A stretch of 64,000 nt of DNA from Dictyostelium discoideum. Its lineage: Eukaryota. Both the position numbers and the translations under genes were made by a program. The stretch is taken from positions 480,001 through 544,000 of the forward strand of contig CM000151.3 in assembly GCA_000004695.1 (NCBI GenBank). Direction: 5' to 3'. Positions 888 through 51,617 of the stretch are shown here, piece by piece. The notes under the pieces were generated by a model, which was not told where the DNA came from, searched no databases, and was given only the letters and a program-made list of their open reading frames with translations. Within the stretch, counting starts at the first letter, position 1. Every line of letters starts with the position of its first letter.

Positions 888-8472
<7,585 letters not shown>

Positions 8473-8533
8473 ATAATAACAATAATAAAACAAAACACTT
8501 TTTTATTTTATAAATAATAATTTAATTTAAATT

Positions 8534-13615
<5,082 letters not shown>

Positions 13616-43100: not shown

Positions 43101-46100
43101 AGATGGTTCAGTTTTATATGAAATTCAAGAAGTTGTTTGTAAATCATTAATTCCAATCAAAGATTCACTTAAAATTGAATATCCAAATGATGAATTATAC
43201 AAAGTTCATTTACAATCAAAAGATTCTCAAATTCCAACACCATCATATTTCAAATCAATTATTTATGAAAATGATTCTTTCCATTCTATTGTAAATATTC
43301 CAGAAGATTTATTCAAATATATTTCAACATTGTTTTATAAAGATATTATAAAAAGATGTCCAGAAATTAATATCAATAAAATTAATTCTCATAGTGTTAA
43401 TGAAATTATTTCAAGTTTCAGTAAAATTTCAAAACACGAAAGATTATTTAGATTTGTATTTGAAACAATAAAAGAGAATGGTATTCTTAATAGTTTGGAA
43501 GAAAATGATGATGCTTATTTCGAATTTAATGAATTAGTTATAAAATCATCAAGAATTATTTCAAAATTATTATTTCCATTAGAAAATGATAATGATAATG
43601 AAGATTTACCTCAATCATTATTTCAAAATGGTTTAATGGATAAATTTTATAAATGCAACAATTTTAAAAAGAAAAATCAAATTATTTCACATGTTATAAA
43701 ACATTCAATTAAAGAGATTATTAATAATAATATTATAATTAGAATTTTAGAATTTGGAGGAGGTACTGCATCATTATCAGTTGAAGTTATTGGAGAAATC
43801 GTTACATTACTCCAAGAGAATCCAAATTATCAAGTTGAAATCGAATATACATGGAGTGATATTTCACCTGCATTCATAGCAGATGCAAAGAATAAAATCA
43901 ATAAAATCATTAATGATGCTGCTATAACAAATGGATTAAATGTTATTTATCTTCCATTAACAATTGGTGAATCATTGATAGAAACTCAATCAATTAAACC
44001 ATCATATTATGATTTCGTTATAATGTCAAATGTTCTTCATGTTGTTAAAGATATCAAACAAGTGGTAGAACAAATGTATCAATTGTTAACACCAAATGGT
44101 CAATTGGTGTTTGTTGAACCACCTTATAAATCAATTCTAATTGATTCAATAGTTGGTTCATTTGATCAATGGTGGTCATTCACTGATACTGATATTAGAA
44201 AAGATAGATGTGGTATGTCTCAACAAAGTTGGTATCAATTATTAAAGACATGTAATTTTAAAGACATTGTAATGTCTAAAGAATGCATTTTCGGATCAGT
44301 AATACAGGCACAAAAACCACCAATTTCTTTATTGAATTCTCAACCAAAACATGATAATATAATTATATATGGTGGTGGTAATAATTCACGTTTTTTTGAA
44401 AACATCAAATTATATTCAAATTCGAAAAGTTTAATTCAAATTGAAACTATTCAAGAATTTAATCAATTTATAAATAAATCTACAATTACAAACGATTCAA
44501 TCATTTATTTTATAAAAACATTAGAAACATTATCATTGGATAATTTTGCACAAATAACTCTTGAATATATTGAAATCAATAAAAAACTATTACAAATTAA
44601 TAGTTTATGTAAACATGTATTAATTGTTAGTGATTCAAGAAAAACTAACTATTTAGCATCATCAGTTGTTGGTGCTGCAAGATACTTTGATGAATTCCAA
44701 CAATTGAAATTACATACGTTAGATTTTGATTATGATTCAACTCAAAATTATATAAATTCAAAAAATAACAAAATGGTTCAATTCATTAATATATTAACAG
44801 ATTCAAAAACAAATGTTCATAAAGAAATGATTATAATTAATAATAAAGTATATTATGAAATAGTTCAAAAAGAGAAAAATCTAAAATTAAAATACAATTC
44901 AGAATCTTTTGAAAATCAAAATAATTTAATGTGTTCATTATCACCAAATTTAGAATATCAATTACAATCAAAACAAATTAAATTAAGAGATAATCAAGTT
45001 GAAGTTAAAACAATTGCAACTGGTATCAATTATAAAGATTATTTAAATTTTAGTGGTTCAAATAGCAACGGTGATGACAATACAGGTTTACCACAATTTG
45101 GATATGAATTTTCAGGTATTATAACAAGAGTTGGTAATAATGTAAAAGATTATAAAGTTGGTGATAATGTATTTGGTTTATCAAATTCTTGTACATCATC
45201 TCACATTGTTACAAATTTTAAAAATATTCAATTAAAACCTTCAAAAATAAGTCATATTGAAGCATCATCAATTCCAATTGATTATTTAGCATCATTTATT
45301 AGTTTATTTAATGTTGGTAGTTTAAATATTGAAGATAATGAATCAATTTTAATTCATTTAGGTAGTGATGGTTTTGGATTATCAACATTTGAAATATTAA
45401 AATGGAAAGGTTTTAAATCAAATTTATTCGTTACAGTAAATTCAGATGAAACTAAACAATATCTTCTAGATAGATATGGTGATTTTATTAGTGGAATTTA
45501 TTCAAACACAGATAAAAGTTATGTTACAGAAATAAAAAACGAATTAATTAAATTAGGTTCAAAAAAGAAAGGAGTAGATTTAATATTAAATACATTACCA
45601 AGTGATTTTATGGATTCAAATTTCGAGTTATTAACAAAGAATGCAAGAATAATTGATTTAACTTCAAATCATTTAAATCAAAGTGAATTTTTAAAAAATA
45701 TCAATTTTAAATATAATCATAGTTACCACAACTTTCAGTTATCATTATTTCAAAAAAATAAAATACAAAAATGTTTAAATGAAATTTCAAATGCTATTGA
45801 AAATGGAGAATTAAAAACTATTCCAATTAAAGAATTTACAAATTTAAATATTAAAGATGCCATCAAATACATTACCAACGGTAACATTGAAAAAATTACA
45901 GTTAGCCATGACCATGAAATTTATAGTGATATTATTTATAGATATTTAGATGAAAAAGAGTTTTCAATATTAAAATCAAATTATCAAATTAATTCAAATA
46001 ATTTAGGTAAAAATATATTAATTACAGGTCAATCAGGTATTATTTTAGAAATATTAAAATGGATCATTAAATATTCAAATATTAATACAATAGAAAATGT

Positions 46101-47091
46101 TATTATTCTTTCAAGATCATCATTAAAATGGGAATTAGAGTTATTAATTAATCAAACTAAACTATCAAATAATAATATTAAATTTCATTTCAAGAGTATT
46201 GATGTTGGTGATAGTGAACAAGTTGATAATGCAATCAATGAAATATTAAATGAAAATCAACAAATTACAAATATTGATTCAATATACCATTTTGCATTTC
46301 AACAAATTACATGTAAAGTTCAAGAAATCAATATGAAACATTTAGATATTTCACATGGAGCAAAATCAATGGGAGCAATTAATTTACATAATCAATCAAT
46401 TAAACGTAATTGGAAATTAATTAATTTTGTTATGGCTTCTTCTGCAATTTCATTAATAGGTTCAACAGATTTATGTACATATGCTTGTGCAAATACTCTA
46501 CTAGATTCATTTTCAAAATACAGAGTATCACTTGGATTACCATCTGCATGTATTAACTTTGGATCAATTGAATCTACTGGTTTCGTTTCAAAGAATGAAT
46601 CAGTTTCAGTATTTTTAGACGGTGGTGGTTTCCATCCAACACCAATCAATCAAGTTTTAGGCCTTTTAGATTTACAAATTCAAAATTCTGGTAAATTCAC
46701 AAATTCAATGCTTTCAAATTTCAAACCCTCAAAATTTAAAAATAATCAACAAATATCATTATTTCTAAAATTTGATTACTTGATGAATTTAAAAAACAAT
46801 AGTGAACAAACTAAAAAAGAGAATATTGGAAATAAAAACATTGATGAATTATTCATTGAGAAAGTTTCAGAATTATTTTCAACCGATGAATCAAAAATAA
46901 ATAAAAATCTTAGATTAATCGATTATGGTGCAGATTCATTAATAATAGTTCAATTAAAGAATTGGATAGATAAAGAAATTGGTATTAATTTAATAACAAT
47001 TCAACAACTTCAAAATAATACAATTAATATTTCAATCAAAATGATATTAAATTCATTAATGAAAAATAATCAATGTGGAAGGGAAATTTAA
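40187..47091 (+). CDS. PKS paralog C, exon 2 (KS-AT-DH-cMT-ER-KR-ACP); ends ...MKNNQCGREI* directly after the ACP
   Basis: Intron 40115-40186 in phase 1. It is more than 90% identical to paralog B through the ACP. No R domain is present. Confidence 0.85.
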
Positions 47092-47449
47092 CTTTTTTTT
47101 TTTCAGGGAAAAAAAGCGCTATTTTACCTACACTGCTTTGTGAAATTTAAATAAAAAACCAATATCTAATAATAATAATAATTAATTTATATTTTTAATA
47201 TGAATGTTTTAATATAATTTATTTAAATAATTAAATTCTAAAAATAAAACTTTTGATTTAAAAAATAAAAAATAAAATAAAAAATTCAAAAAACAGCTCT
47301 ACAAATGTCAAAAGAAAAATTTCTAAAGATATTTCACGGTTTTTTACGAGCTCGAAAATATCTTAGGCGCCTACACAAAAAAATTTTATTTTAATAATAT
47401 GACAACATCACAAAATAAATTTACAGAAAAAAAAAAAAATAAAAAAATA

Positions 47450-47477
47450 AATTAGAGATGCCGGAAATGAAAAAAAA

Positions 47478-47516
<39 letters not shown>

Positions 47517-48348
47517 GCAAAAAAAAAAAAAAAAAAAAAAAAATTTGGTTTTTTTTTTTTTTAATTTTTTTTTTTTAATTTTTTTTTTTATTTTTTTTTT
47601 AAATTAATTTATATTTATTTTAGGAGTCAATCCATTCATCTAAATCTATTTTCTCAACTGCTTTTGGAGTAACTGTTATTGAAAAAATTATATTTATTTG
47701 AGACTGTTGAGAATGTTTTTTTGTTTTATTTTTTTATAAAATATTTAATATACCATCTGGATGAATATTTTTTTATAAAATTTAATTAATTAAATTCTCT
47801 CTTTTTTTATTTATAAACAAAACTATAGAACCAACTGACAACATCTTCATACTCCATTGGAATTCTTCGGCACTCAGAGATTAAAATTAAATGATCCCAT
47901 CATTTTACCATTAGAAGATGGATCGTTTAAACTTGTTTTTGGTTATCCACCTTTTGATATTGAAATAATTGAGGTTAAATATTTGGGTGATGGTAGAATT
48001 GGAATAAGATACCATGTCTTATTACCATCAAGAGAAGATCTAGAAACAATAGTTGGTTATGATTATTCATCCAGATGGTATATTAAATATGATTGTCTAC
48101 CACTCAAAACCACAAGCTTTCACTTTCTTCATCACTCTGCCTCTACAAAAGAACAAGAAAAATATCAAAGTTGTAAAATCGATATTGAAAAAGATATAAA
48201 ATATTTTTCAATAACAGTTACTCCAAAAGCAGTTGAGAAAATAGATTTAGATGAATGGATTGACTCCTAAAATAAATATAAATTAATTTAAAAAAAAAAT
48301 AAAAAAAATAAAAAAAATAAAAAAAAACAATTTTTTTTTTTTTTTTGC

Positions 48349-48390
<42 letters not shown>

Positions 48391-48412
48391 CATTTCCAGC
48401 GTCTCTATTAAA
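47450..48412. mobile_element. foldback / TIR element of about 960 bp with about 250-bp terminal inverted repeats
   Basis: The left arm is about 47450-47700 and the right arm about 48180-48412. The inner 64 bp (47622-47687 GGAGTCAATCCATTCATCTAAATCTATTTTCTCAACTGCTTTTGGAGTAACTGTTATTGAAAAA) is the exact reverse complement of 48204-48267. The outer ends TAGAGATGCCGGAAATGA and TCATTTCCAGCGTCTCTA match with two mismatches. AAATTTGGCAAAA and TTTTGCCAAATTT are mirrored. Confidence 0.6.
47857..48270 (+). other. 137-codon open frame inside the foldback element (no in-frame ATG)
   Basis: The track ORF starts at TTG. The frame opens after the TGA at 47836 and contains no ATG codon. Its last 22 codons are encoded by the right inverted-repeat arm. 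It may be an internal exon, or a frame left open by the repeat; it is not supportable as a protein gene. Confidence 0.15.
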
Positions 48413-48834
48413 AAAAACAAAATAAAAAAAAAAAAAAAATTAAAAAAATAAAAAAAAAATTAAAAAAATAAAACAAAAAAACATTTTCAAATAAAAGAAA
48501 AAAGAAAAATATTGTGGATCGAAGAGAATCGATTTTTTTTTTTTTTTTTTATTAATCGTTAGAATTTGCAATTAAATTGCGATTTTTTAATTTTTTTGAT
48601 CTGAAATGAATTTTAAAAATCATAATATTAATAATAGTAATAAAAAAATTAATGATAAATAATTTATTTATTTAATTTTATATATTTTGGAGTTTTCTTT
48701 CGAAACTTTTCAGTCGAAAAATAAAAAATTAAGAAAAATGAAAAAAAAAAGTTTTGGTTCACGCTTTACAATATTCTTATAATATAAATTGTGTTGTTCC
48801 TTTATTTATTATGATCATTTTTTTTTTTTGGTAT

Positions 48835-50170
48835 AAATAAACTATTGTAGTATACAATTAGTATGTTATTTTTATTTATTTATTTTAGGTTTTTTAGTTT
48901 TTGTGAATTTAAAATGGTATGTTATTTTAGATGTGGTAATTAATAATTAATTGGTAGTGTAATTGTTGGAATTGGTTCATTTGTGTTTATGCTCCATTCT
49001 TTTTTAAATTTTTTGATGGTTTCGGACCATTGGGTTTCTTTTTGAGTTTTTGTGAGGTTGTTTTTAATTGAGTATTGGTTAAAGTTTGATAATGTTCTTG
49101 AATATTCCAATCTTATTAGCTTGTGCCATTTTGATTTTAATATATCATAATCTAGTGTTGTGTTGTTTATTTGGTTGTTCCAATTGTCAATTGATTGAGT
49201 TATATTGATGTCAAATAATGATTTGCATAACCATATTTGGTGAATAACTAATGAGATTATGTTCCAATATGCATGTGTTCTGACTAGATCAAGATTTGTT
49301 TATATAATTCCAGTTGAATCTGTATTTTTTATATTGTGCGTTTTCTGCTAAATGAAAATTAATATTGATAGTTGGATCTGGTTTAAATGCTTTGTTGTTT
49401 GTTTGTGGTTTATAAATGAGTGTGTATAATTTTGTTGTTTGGTTTTTTGTTAGTGACCAGTTTTTGTTTCCATTGCAATTTTTATATATAAAATATTTTA
49501 ATTTGTCGTGGTTTATGAAGTTGATTGTGTGCTGACAATTGAAAAACAAATGACCATAGGGATCATTATTCATTTCATTGTTGCAAATGGGGCAAACTTT
49601 GTTGTGTAGATGATTAATTGGAAGACATCTAGCATGGAATCTTTGCATTGTATCACGGCCTTTTGGATCTTTTAATTTTTGAATTTTGACAAATAGTTGG
49701 TCGTATGTGTATTTCCATAATAGTTGTATTGATTGTTGGTGCGAAGTAAGAAGTATATCTGAATATTTCTTGCCAACATAGTCTTTTGATTTACATTGGT
49801 GATTGTTGAGTATTGTCGAGTAGATTTCTTTGAGTGTTGGTGGTAGTGAAATATTATTTGTGGTTAATGTTTGAGAGGTTTGGTTTTTTGTTAATATTGG
49901 TTGTAGGGTTTGAACTTTATCTTTTAGATGTCCAATTTGAGTTGCATAGTTTTCCCATTCTTTTTTGATTTTTATAAGGTATGGAGAAGAGATTGATTTG
50001 TTGATGATTTGATCCATCCAACTTATCATGTATATTGAATTGTTTGCAGATTTATGCTTTTGTAAAAATCTGTTGTATATCCAAATCTTTTGAGCAACTT
50101 GTCGTAATTGTATATTCCACATACCCCAACCACCTTCTTTTAATGGTGTTTCAACAAATTGAAACAAATT
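48835..50170 (-). mobile_element. 5'-truncated non-LTR (LINE/TRE-like) retrotransposon 3' fragment: ORF2 post-RT region plus a C-terminal CCHC zinc-knuckle
   Basis: The minus ORF 49289-50167 contains PLKEGGWGMWNI, the conserved post-RT E-GG-LG motif of L1-type ORF2. It also contains CPICNNEMNNDPYGHLFFNC (CX2CX11HX4C, the ORF2 C-terminal zinc-knuckle). The segment is richer in G+T than the flanks. A T13 run at 48821-48833 is consistent with a poly(A) tail on the minus strand. Confidence 0.55.
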
Positions 50171-50980
50171 GAAACAAGTTTTTTTAATGTTTAAAAAAGG
50201 AATCTCTAAAAATAACCTATATTTAAAAATAATAAAATTTTTTAAAATTCCAACTTTTTAAAAATGGTTTTTTTATTTTTTAATTGAAAAAAAAAAAAAA
50301 ATTAAACCCAATTAAACAAAATTTTTTTTCTAATTAATCAAACATGATATTATTTTCTCCAAATTTAAAATATTTTTAAATTATTCCACATCATAAAATG
50401 TATACATATGTGTATTTTATTGTGAAAAATCCCCTTGTTAATGAAGGGAAATTTTTTTTGAAATTTCACTACAAAAAGATTTGGTATGAAAATTTGAAAA
50501 AGACAAAAAAAAAAAAAAAATTAAAATTAAAAAAAATATCTTCACGTGGGAATTTATTTTCAGAAAAACCTTTTTTTTTTTTCATTTTTTATTTTTTTTT
50601 ATTTTTTAAATTCTTAATAATAAATAAAATGACAGTAAAATAAACATAAAAACAAAAACCAAATTTACAGACTTTATTTTTAAAATCCCCAACATGATAC
50701 CGATTATCTCCAAATTTAAAATGTTCCACACTATATAAAAAAAAGTGGTACTTGATAATTTTAATTAATATTCATTTTTTTTTATTGGTTCACCTATTTT
50801 TAACTGCTTCTTACTATAAAAAATAATAGTAAAAAAAAAAGTAAATAATGCAAGTTTCTAAAAAAAAAAAAAAATATAAATTAAAAAAAAAAAAAACAAA
50901 ATTTAATTTTAAAATTAATTTAGAATTATTTCTGGTAATAACTAATAGAGATATTCCTCAACTAAAATAACTAAGCACCA

Positions 50981-51617
50981 ATGAATAATTTAGAAATTAT
51001 AAATTTAATAGATAAAGGTGTTGCAATTGTTGGGGTGGGGTTTAGAATTCCTTCTGGTAATAATGAAAATTCAATTTGTTCACCAGATGATTTATTTAAT
51101 AATTTAAAGAATGGTTTTGATGGTGTTAGTAGTACATCAGAAAGATGGAGTGACAATTTTCATAAATTAGGTGAAATTAGTAGTCCAAATGCAGGTTTAT
51201 TACCATTTAATGAATGCAAATCATTCGATCCATTATTTTTTGGTATTAATCCATCCGATGCTCATCAGATTGATCCTCAACAAAGATTATTATTAAAATG
51301 TACATGGGAAGCATTAGAAGATGCATCTATCGATCCAATTTCAATTCGTGGTACAAATACTTCAGTTTTCATTGGTTCTTCAAATATTGATTATCAACAT
51401 ATAAATAAACACCAAGACTCAGTTTTAAAAAATGTAATAGCACAATCTGCCTATGCTGTTTCAAATAGAATTTCATACTGTTTCGATTTTAATGGTCCAT
51501 CATTATCAATCGATACTGCATGTTCATCATCATTAAATGCAGTTTCTCAAGGTTATCATTCAATATTAAATGGTACTTCCAATATGTCAATTGTTGGTGG
51601 TGTAAATTTAATATTAG
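50981..51617 (+). CDS. PKS paralog D, exon 1 (KS N-terminus)
   Basis: ATG at 50981. The exon ends ...VNLIL then G|GTAAGA. Confidence 0.85.

Follow-up and report, generated by a model that had tools for sequence, protein, structure and literature searches.

A probable rearranged copy of a PIF/Harbinger-type transposon, with an inverted right end, in the spacer between two Dictyostelium PKS genes

What is the inverted repeat of about 960 bp that lies between two PKS genes of Dictyostelium discoideum, and how did it acquire its long arms? The earlier note on this DNA, a stretch of 64,000 nucleotides that we call the window, saw in it either a non-autonomous DNA transposon of the MITE or foldback type or a local palindromic duplication. 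The analysis reported here indicates that the segment 47454–48406 is probably one dead, rearranged and non-autonomous copy of a small Dictyostelium PIF/Harbinger-type TIR transposon, the left half of which is an inverted right end.

The spacer that houses the element had been correctly described as 3.9 kb long, since one PKS gene stops at 47091 and the following PKS gene has its ATG at 50981, and as containing a retroelement fragment: the 292-aa ORF 49292–50167(−) shares 93–98% identity with several proteins of D. discoideum AX4, and in two of these the reverse-transcriptase domain PF00078 is present. The element is separated by 362 bp from the PKS gene upstream of it and by 2.6 kb from the one downstream; neither gene is interrupted by it, and the upstream PKS gene lies on the same strand. 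No Rfam family was detected across 46500–51500 and no tRNA gene across 36000–64000. When the C-terminal 399 aa of the upstream PKS served as query, the hits were all short proteins with 51–53% identity, and no orthologous locus was obtained.

Anatomy of the inverted repeat and of its core

Gapped alignment of the left side of the region with the reverse complement of its right side delimits an element of 953 bp, whose parts are listed in Table 1. The local alignment, which pairs 47453–47686 with 48407–48204, confirms the presence of the inverted repeat and consists of blocks of 20/22, 55/55, 12/13, 9/9 and 105/105 matching positions, separated by gaps that fall solely in A/T homopolymer runs. 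Two earlier measurements have to be revised: the arms are 233 and 203 nt long instead of about 250 bp, and their longest exact stretch is 105 bp instead of 64 bp. The two mismatches reported at the termini are real, the outermost 18 nt of the arms (TAGAGATGCCGGAAATGA vs TAGAGACGCTGGAAATGA) differing at two positions; apart from these two terminal substitutions, one more mismatch and the A/T-run indels, the arms are identical. An additional exact inverted match of 27 bp, between 47741–47767 and 48064–48090, is found inside the core.

The repeat stands out clearly from its surroundings. The 64-kb window contains two exact occurrences of an arm 39-mer, one on either strand, compared to 0 expected (100 shuffles), and no second copy of the element is present within the window. 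When the element plus one flanking base per side (47453–48407, 955 nt) is folded as single-stranded DNA, the predicted energy is −246.5 kcal/mol, vs −98.4 ± 5.9 kcal/mol for shuffled sequences (z = −25). Tandem repeat analysis of the arms with TRF detected only homopolymer-like A/T low complexity and one 31-nt two-copy repeat. The arms comprise (i) the terminal 66 coding nucleotides of an accessory gene (ending in ITVTPKAVEKIDLDEWIDS followed by the stop), (ii) about 120 nt of A/T-rich 3′ flank and (iii) a terminal motif.

Table 1. Parts of the window copy and of its immediate surroundings (window positions)
Feature	Position	Strand	Remarks
Left target-site duplication, ATT	47451..47453	.	Direct repeat of 48407–48409
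Left arm, inverted copy of the right end	47454..47686	−	Gapped alignment with rc(48204–48407); terminal motif AGAGATGCCGGAAAT = family TIR
Filler, 54 bp instead of the expected 113 bp (48091–48203)	47687..47740	.	Holds inverted flank DNA
Inner remnant of the inverted copy	47741..47767	−	27/27 to 48064–48090 in coding sequence
Intron remnant (3′ part) of the accessory gene; start of the forward 5′-truncated copy	47768..47828	+	
Pseudogene: last exon of the accessory (non-transposase) gene	47829..48270	+	442 bp
Right arm = native right end	48204..48406	+	Coding 3′ end, A/T-rich 3′ flank, motif CATTTCCAGCGTCTCT
Right target-site duplication, ATT	48407..48409	.	
Flank segment outside the element = filler template	48461..48495	.	
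Neighbouring retroelement fragment, outside the element	49289..50167	−	93–98% identity to several multi-copy AX4 proteins

The 517 nt between the arms had been described as about 480 bp of GC-richer, unique sequence. They are indeed GC-richer (0.29–0.30 vs 0.10–0.14 in the arms), but they are not unique, because, judged by its sequence, the core is a 5′-truncated, decaying pseudogene copy of a multi-copy gene. More specifically, the open frame 47839–48270(+) is, along 100% of its length, 94% identical to the hypothetical protein P0001 (246 aa) of Dictyostelium cf. discoideum. Only eight relatives of the core protein were found, all in Dictyostelium; a profile search of 1.84 billion cluster representatives returned only six clusters, one of which is a divergent 288-aa full-length form, and a scan of metagenome contigs yielded no relatives. 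Given that only Dictyostelium relatives and these six clusters were found, the accessory-protein family appears to be confined to the Dictyostelium lineage.

For comparison we used the eight related loci, L001–L008, which come from other Dictyostelium genomes. Homology to the full-length paralogues starts at window position 47766 (10400 in L001, 6422 in L002), that is, inside an intron whose GT...ATAG boundaries are apparent in the alignment with both loci. The window copy retains the 442-bp exon with an open frame of 137–143 aa; it has no upstream exons and no ATG, and the alignment reveals a 2-bp insertion near 47838–47840 that shifts the frame. Compared to L001, the exon differs at 7 of 411 nt, which corresponds to six nonsynonymous codons and one synonymous codon. 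The largest ORF in the element encodes 137 aa and lacks an ATG, so that the element contains no transposase-sized ORF, as the earlier note had observed.

The nature of the accessory protein was probed in several ways. Neither the core ORF nor the family proteins matched any Pfam family; searches in Pfam, in PDB sequences and with Foldseek gave no significant Myb/SANT match, and the PDB sequence search with the family profile returned nothing below E 0.8. The AlphaFold2 model of the protein, built from 11 sequences, is weak (pLDDT 56.6), with a predicted three-helix unit at the N-terminus (residues 7–57, pLDDT 74–80). A resemblance to HSP20/CS-like β-sandwiches, seen as weak Foldseek hits against the PDB (E ≥ 0.015), was not trusted.

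Termini, duplications and transposase remnants in related copies

The right end of the element is shared by the whole comparison set. The terminal motif ...CATTTCCAGCATCTCT closes the right end in 8/8 related copies: in a multiple alignment of the 3′ regions, T(n)CA(A/T)TTCCAGCATCTCT lies about 130–150 nt past the stop codon in every relative, and the flanks of the relatives diverge directly beyond it. An apparent homology that continues past the terminus, to about 48512, in L005–L007 was dismissed after inspection of the multiple alignment as A-rich low-complexity matching. At their left ends, L001 (5634) and L006 (7588) carry the inverted terminal motif with an A-run behind it; L005 (7291) has a degenerate form. 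The two ends of L001, and likewise those of L006, share the motif TAGAGATGCTGGAAAT and an adjoining A-run, of which L005 shows a degenerate version, and the TIRs of the related loci consist of about 17–20 nt of complex sequence plus an A-run.

When the boundaries of the elements are taken as AGAG...CTCT, 3-bp direct repeats flank the three two-ended copies with clear termini, all three of them: ATT/ATT in the window, where a target-site duplication had been proposed as a check, ATT/ATT in L001 and AAT/AAT in L006. Given the local composition, the chance of a 3-bp match is 0.052 per element and about 1.4e-4 jointly. Note that the duplications read AWT and that the invariant T and A beside AGAG...CTCT could belong to the TIR instead. 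The presence of the motif in 8/8 relatives, its inverted form at the left ends and the 3-bp duplications together show that the outer ends of the window element are genuine transposon termini, and they bear out the earlier view that it is transposon-derived and non-autonomous.

The copies differ widely in their state of preservation. Compact two-ended copies, L006 (7589–9185, 1.6 kb) and L005 (about 1.8 kb), lie between unrelated host genes of one genome; in L001 a nested DIRS-like retroelement separates the left end from the gene; L002 has suffered an internal deletion; and L003, L004, L007 and L008 are without left ends. Among copies sampled from one genome, identity is 74–92% overall for L004/L005/L006 and 89% for L007/L008. 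A long inverted duplication of the 3′ end of the gene was found in 0/8 related loci, where the TIRs are the short ones described above, and this speaks against the assignment of the element to a MITE or foldback family.

Remnants of a transposase are present in three of these copies. L006 contains, at 7698–7985(−), a DDE_Tnp_4 fragment of 96 aa that covers profile positions 73–153 of 158 (E 1.4e-7; 31.7 bits, vs a Pfam gathering score of 24.8); L005 contains a fragment that is 84% identical to it and is interrupted by stop codons; and L002 contains, at 5417–5760(−), a segment matching DDE_Tnp_4 positions 1–79 of 158 (E 6.4e-13, 49.1 bits). These remnants have the left end on one side and the accessory gene on the other, and they occupy the strand opposite to that of the accessory gene. 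The corresponding region has been lost from the window copy. DDE_Tnp_4 genes also neighbour the accessory gene in L001 and L004; the one in L004 was rejected as its partner: it is only 28% identical to the family fragment and belongs to a second, related unit.

From three deleted copies we pieced together a two-gene architecture, in which short TIRs (AGAGATGCTGGAAAT plus an A-run), flanked by a 3-bp duplication, would enclose two divergent genes, a DDE_Tnp_4 transposase by the left TIR and an accessory protein of 246–288 aa by the right TIR. No intact autonomous copy of this exact family, with a full transposase and both TIRs, was seen among the related loci. A two-gene, TIR-bounded unit with 3-bp duplications and DDE_Tnp_4 remnants is what leads us to regard the family as PIF/Harbinger-like; the accessory protein stands in the position of the Harbinger Myb-like ORF.

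Origin of the left half

The left half of the window element is a mosaic of inverted segments that derive from its right half and from the flank. Within the filler, 47707–47736 matches rc(48461–48490) at 29/30 positions, vs at most 26/30 for the best of 200 shuffles, and the match extends, with a 9-bp insertion, to 47693–47736 vs 48461–48495 (about 35 nt). The template of this filler lies 55–89 bp outside the right terminus, beyond the target-site duplication, and its position there implies that at least the filler step happened at the present locus. The inner remnant 47741–47767 is collinear with the left arm, which suggests that an inverted copy once spanned rc(48064–48406). The simplest history would therefore be a single inverted duplication of rc(48064–48406), followed by the replacement of 113 bp by the 54-bp filler. 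The junction at 47767/47768, between the inverted and the forward parts, is without homology.

The left terminus itself reads GGAAATGA, as family right ends do, with the same A9-T interruption as the right end of L002, unlike the single D. discoideum-type left end available (L001), which reads GGAAATTGA. Since it has this right-end signature, the whole left arm, including its terminus, may derive from a right end. For the first step of the rearrangement, a right-end-type left terminus fits equally well with the formation of the unit elsewhere followed by its transposition, which is possible for that step.

We infer from this anatomy that the foldback arose at its present site through aberrant repair, in the following order. 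The element would have inserted here and produced the ATT duplication, the empty site before insertion being expected to read ...AAATAAATT/AAAAAAAAC... with only one ATT. Excision (with gap repair from the sister copy) or replication breakage would then have left a double-strand break in or at the element, and this break would have been processed by abortive, synthesis-dependent gap repair or template switching, during which the left side would have copied the right end in inverted orientation, aided by the near-identical TIRs and the long A/T runs. The inverted copy would originally have measured about 343 bp, rc(48064–48406), and the two nascent ends would have been joined without homology inside the intron. 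Finally, a later break in the hairpin-prone arm would have been patched with the filler. Everything to the left of the intron is missing from the window copy: neither the transposase nor the promoter region nor the 5′ exons of the accessory gene have survived.

How do other explanations compare? A mobile, multi-copy family of foldback or MITE-like units, of which this one would have formed elsewhere as a double-right-end unit, been mobilised in trans and inserted here whole, would account for both ends bearing the family motif within a 3-bp ATT repeat and for the right-end signature of the left terminus (GGAAATGA and A9-T, as at the L002 right end); moreover, PIF/Harbinger families do spawn Tourist-type MITEs. 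We nevertheless consider it unlikely: the long arms are found in 0/8 related loci, no second copy is present in the window, a length of 953 bp together with a leftover exon is unusual in a MITE, and the roughly 35 nt of the left half that come from outside the right terminus indicate that part of the structure was made in place. It is very unlikely that two separate copies, inserted head-to-head or nested, were reduced by a later deletion to two outward-facing right ends. Nested family loci do exist (L001 with its DIRS-like insert, L004 with a second Harbinger-like unit), but here the 3-bp repeats on the two outer sides agree, which is what one insertion would produce, identity in the complex parts of the arms reaches 100% (105/105 and 55/55) compared to 74–92% and 89% among the sampled copies, and the flank-derived filler is left unexplained.

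The arms hold coding sequence and 3′ flank, and the protein matches no known transposon protein family, as would be expected if the 3′ end of an ordinary host gene had undergone a local palindromic duplication with no transposition at all. The conserved termini and the duplications largely refute this explanation, whose probability we regard as very slight: the ends are sharp and conserved, the motif recurs inverted, 3-bp duplications flank the copies, DDE_Tnp_4 remnants accompany them, and the copies sit at unrelated loci. What stands of the earlier suggestion of a local palindromic duplication is the origin of the long arms, to which the flank-templated filler testifies; the transposon copy itself pre-existed. 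An artefact of assembly or cloning, in the form of a chimeric foldback read or clone, is very improbable. Inverted duplications are a known class of artefact and long homopolymers are error-prone, but the palindrome is imperfect, with a 517-bp asymmetric centre, a complex filler and substitutions private to each terminus, and it lies in the middle of a 64-kb contig between intact flanks with a target-site duplication. A rearranged copy of a PIF/Harbinger-type element thus accounts best for the data.

The rearranged copy most likely has no present function, since it lacks a transposase, carries a frameshift in its exon and is located between PKS genes; at most, an active transposase, should there be one, could mobilise it in trans. 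By analogy with Mu killer of maize, the inverted duplication could act as a hairpin-RNA locus that silences the remaining family copies in trans, a role that we consider quite unlikely. In that case, read-through from the upstream PKS gene or transcription from a promoter of its own would yield a stem of about 200 bp, including 66 nt of accessory-gene coding sequence, which the Dictyostelium RNAi machinery would process into small RNAs. If small RNAs did map to the arms, the locus would be an amoebozoan example of transposon self-silencing by an inverted derivative. Note that the TIR shares an 8-nt similarity with ddi-mir-7097-3p (TAGAGACG), which was judged coincidental.

Comparison with known elements

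Canonical PIF/Harbinger elements have a 3-bp TAA/TTA duplication, and their second ORF encodes a Myb/SANT-like DNA-binding protein. The Dictyostelium family resembles them in having a DDE_Tnp_4-type transposase (in the relatives, the window copy being without it), a second, non-transposase ORF in the unit, short TIRs, 3-bp duplications and many internally deleted, non-autonomous copies. It departs from them in its duplication, which is AWT and not TAA/TTA, and in its accessory protein, which has no detectable Myb/SANT match. The window copy is also unlike Tourist MITEs. Its arms of 203–233 nt come from one end of the element, in contrast to short TIRs; with 953 bp and a residual exon it departs from Tourist-like MITEs, which measure roughly < 600–800 bp and are non-coding; and its structure appears to occur only once in the set of loci compared.

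The Caenorhabditis elegans element Tc7, which is non-autonomous, measures 921 bp and has inverted repeats of 345 bp that match Tc1 at their outer ends, is close to the window copy in size and layout, with long arms around a core and only the outermost bases shared with the parental TIRs, as well as in its presumed dependence on a transposase supplied in trans. Tc7, however, is a multi-copy, mobile member of the Tc1/mariner group with TA duplications, whereas the window family is Harbinger-like, the arms were copied from the element's own right end, and the mobility of the window copy is presumed at most. Closer parallels for the proposed mechanism are derivatives produced by abortive gap repair or template switching, such as maize Ds, double-Ds and P-element deletion derivatives, and maize Mu killer, in which a portion of MuDR is present as an inverted duplication and which makes small RNAs. 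With these the window copy has in common an internal deletion, an inverted duplication of one end, a junction filler templated from sequence close by, and the retention of its termini and its target-site duplication, the likeness in mechanism being one that we read from the anatomy only. In layout, it is Tc7 and Mu killer that the copy resembles. The Drosophila Foldback (FB) element has long terminal inverted repeats with hairpin-forming potential as well, but FB arms are made of tandem subrepeats, whereas the window arms carry coding sequence and, according to TRF, no such subrepeats.

Taken alone, a decayed and rearranged transposon copy in an intergenic spacer is of little weight. It does illustrate that an apparent foldback may owe its "unique core" to the remains of a gene, in which case the arms are to be read as a rearrangement and not as the TIRs of a family. 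The comparison also served to define a Dictyostelium TIR family, which is recognised by termini, a 3-bp duplication and DDE_Tnp_4 remnants together with an orphan accessory protein, and this definition helps to annotate several "hypothetical proteins" of new Dictyostelium assemblies as transposon genes. In addition, the anatomy of the junctions offers a clean natural example of a repair-generated inverted duplication with templated filler.

The family may represent an undescribed PIF/Harbinger lineage in Dictyostelium. According to a review, the transposases of Dictyostelium DNA transposons resemble no known transposases (PMC5633606), and our literature search found no paper connecting Harbinger with Dictyostelium. 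The D. discoideum DNA transposons catalogued by Glockner et al. 2001, as cited in PMC5633606, include Tdd-4/5, thug-S/T and DDT-A/B/S; like the present family, these are low-copy TIR elements of the same host. Of the assignments suggested earlier, those to Tdd-4/5 and thug-S are not supported, and identity with DDT-A/B/S or thug-T is possible. Tdd-4/5 (Ginger2/Tdd), which have integrase-like transposases, 5-bp duplications and TIRs of 260–297 bp (PMC2836005), were excluded on the basis of the DDE_Tnp_4 remnants, 3-bp duplications and approximately 20-nt TIRs of the family. In thug-S, as in the present family, the ORF has introns, one of which in thug-S carries a multi-copy miRNA hairpin, miRNA_can_D3 (PMC4894637). 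Identity with thug-S is not supported: a search for the two arms of this hairpin, based on the published miRNA sequences (PMC4894637) and allowing ≤4 mismatches or indels, detected them neither in the element nor in any of the family copies. The only 4-edit matches in the window are two, at 4458 and 52997, both inside PKS genes, and the hairpin itself is present only at L002 601–753, about 5 kb from the family copy of that locus.

PKS genes beside copies of the family

A PKS gene lies within 0.4–3.6 kb of three of the nine copies of the Harbinger-like family examined, namely the window element and the copies at loci L004 and L008 from other Dictyostelium genomes (see the table). The PKS genes of the latter two loci are 82–88% identical to each other, with an orientation relative to the element that differs between them, and L008 carries a 3007-aa PKS that is 66% identical to the PKS of the window at the nucleotide level. 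This proximity may be a coincidence, may reflect shared ancestry of the locus, or may result from a preference of the element for the spacers of PKS clusters. A word-indexed protein search with the PKS C-terminus (window 45892–47088), in a database that includes AX4 proteins, returned only four short matches (51–53% identity). Very long proteins seem to be beyond the reach of this search, and the missing PKS orthologues are therefore uninformative.

Family copies near PKS genes and genes of the second Harbinger-like unit
Feature	Location	Strand	Remark
Family copy near PKS	window 47454–48406		
Region noted for PKS near family copy	L004 184–5618		D. cf. discoideum
Region noted for PKS near family copy	L008 1–4408		D. 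dimigraforme
DDE_Tnp_4 gene, seemingly fuller	L004 7108–8371	minus	part of second Harbinger-like unit
313-aa gene with long GSGN repeat	L004 8858–9819	plus	part of second Harbinger-like unit

The left arm and the neighboring retroelement fragment

In the left arm of the window element, a 31-nt unit (A25-TTTGGC) is perfectly duplicated in tandem (2.0 copies, 47488–47548); the right arm has no such duplication. This repeat and the remaining differences in homopolymer length explain why the two arms differ by 30 nt. In the same spacer, the ORF of a retroelement fragment (49289–50167, minus strand, reaching to about 48900) encodes the Cys/His motif CPICNNEMNNDPYGHLFFNCQH, and many AX4 proteins are 93–98% identical to the ORF, a level of identity that points to D. 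discoideum or a very near relative as the source of the window. The fragment coincides with a strong strand asymmetry, the plus-strand GC skew rising up to +0.6 between 48800 and 50000.

Other mobile elements at the loci of related copies

The family copy at L001 is interrupted between its left TIR and its accessory gene by a DIRS-like retroelement (5743–9654), whose RT/RNase H ORFs include a YLDD motif. A 75-bp direct repeat (5668–5743 versus 9581–9654, 79%) marks its borders. At L004, a second, related Harbinger-like unit (7100–10298), with the right-end motif AATTACAGCATCTCT, abuts a truncated family copy; the transposase of this second unit shares only 28% identity with the transposase fragment belonging to the family itself. 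Finally, L002, a locus from a D. discoideum isolate, carries the published intronic miRNA hairpin of thug-S in copies that are tandem or inverted (601–753) and match miRNA_can_D3 5p/3p with one mismatch; the family copy lies about 5 kb downstream of them. The adjoining 190-bp sequence is repeated at L002 5141–5318 and 8834–9077, and this locus is thus a cluster of thug-S-like pieces.
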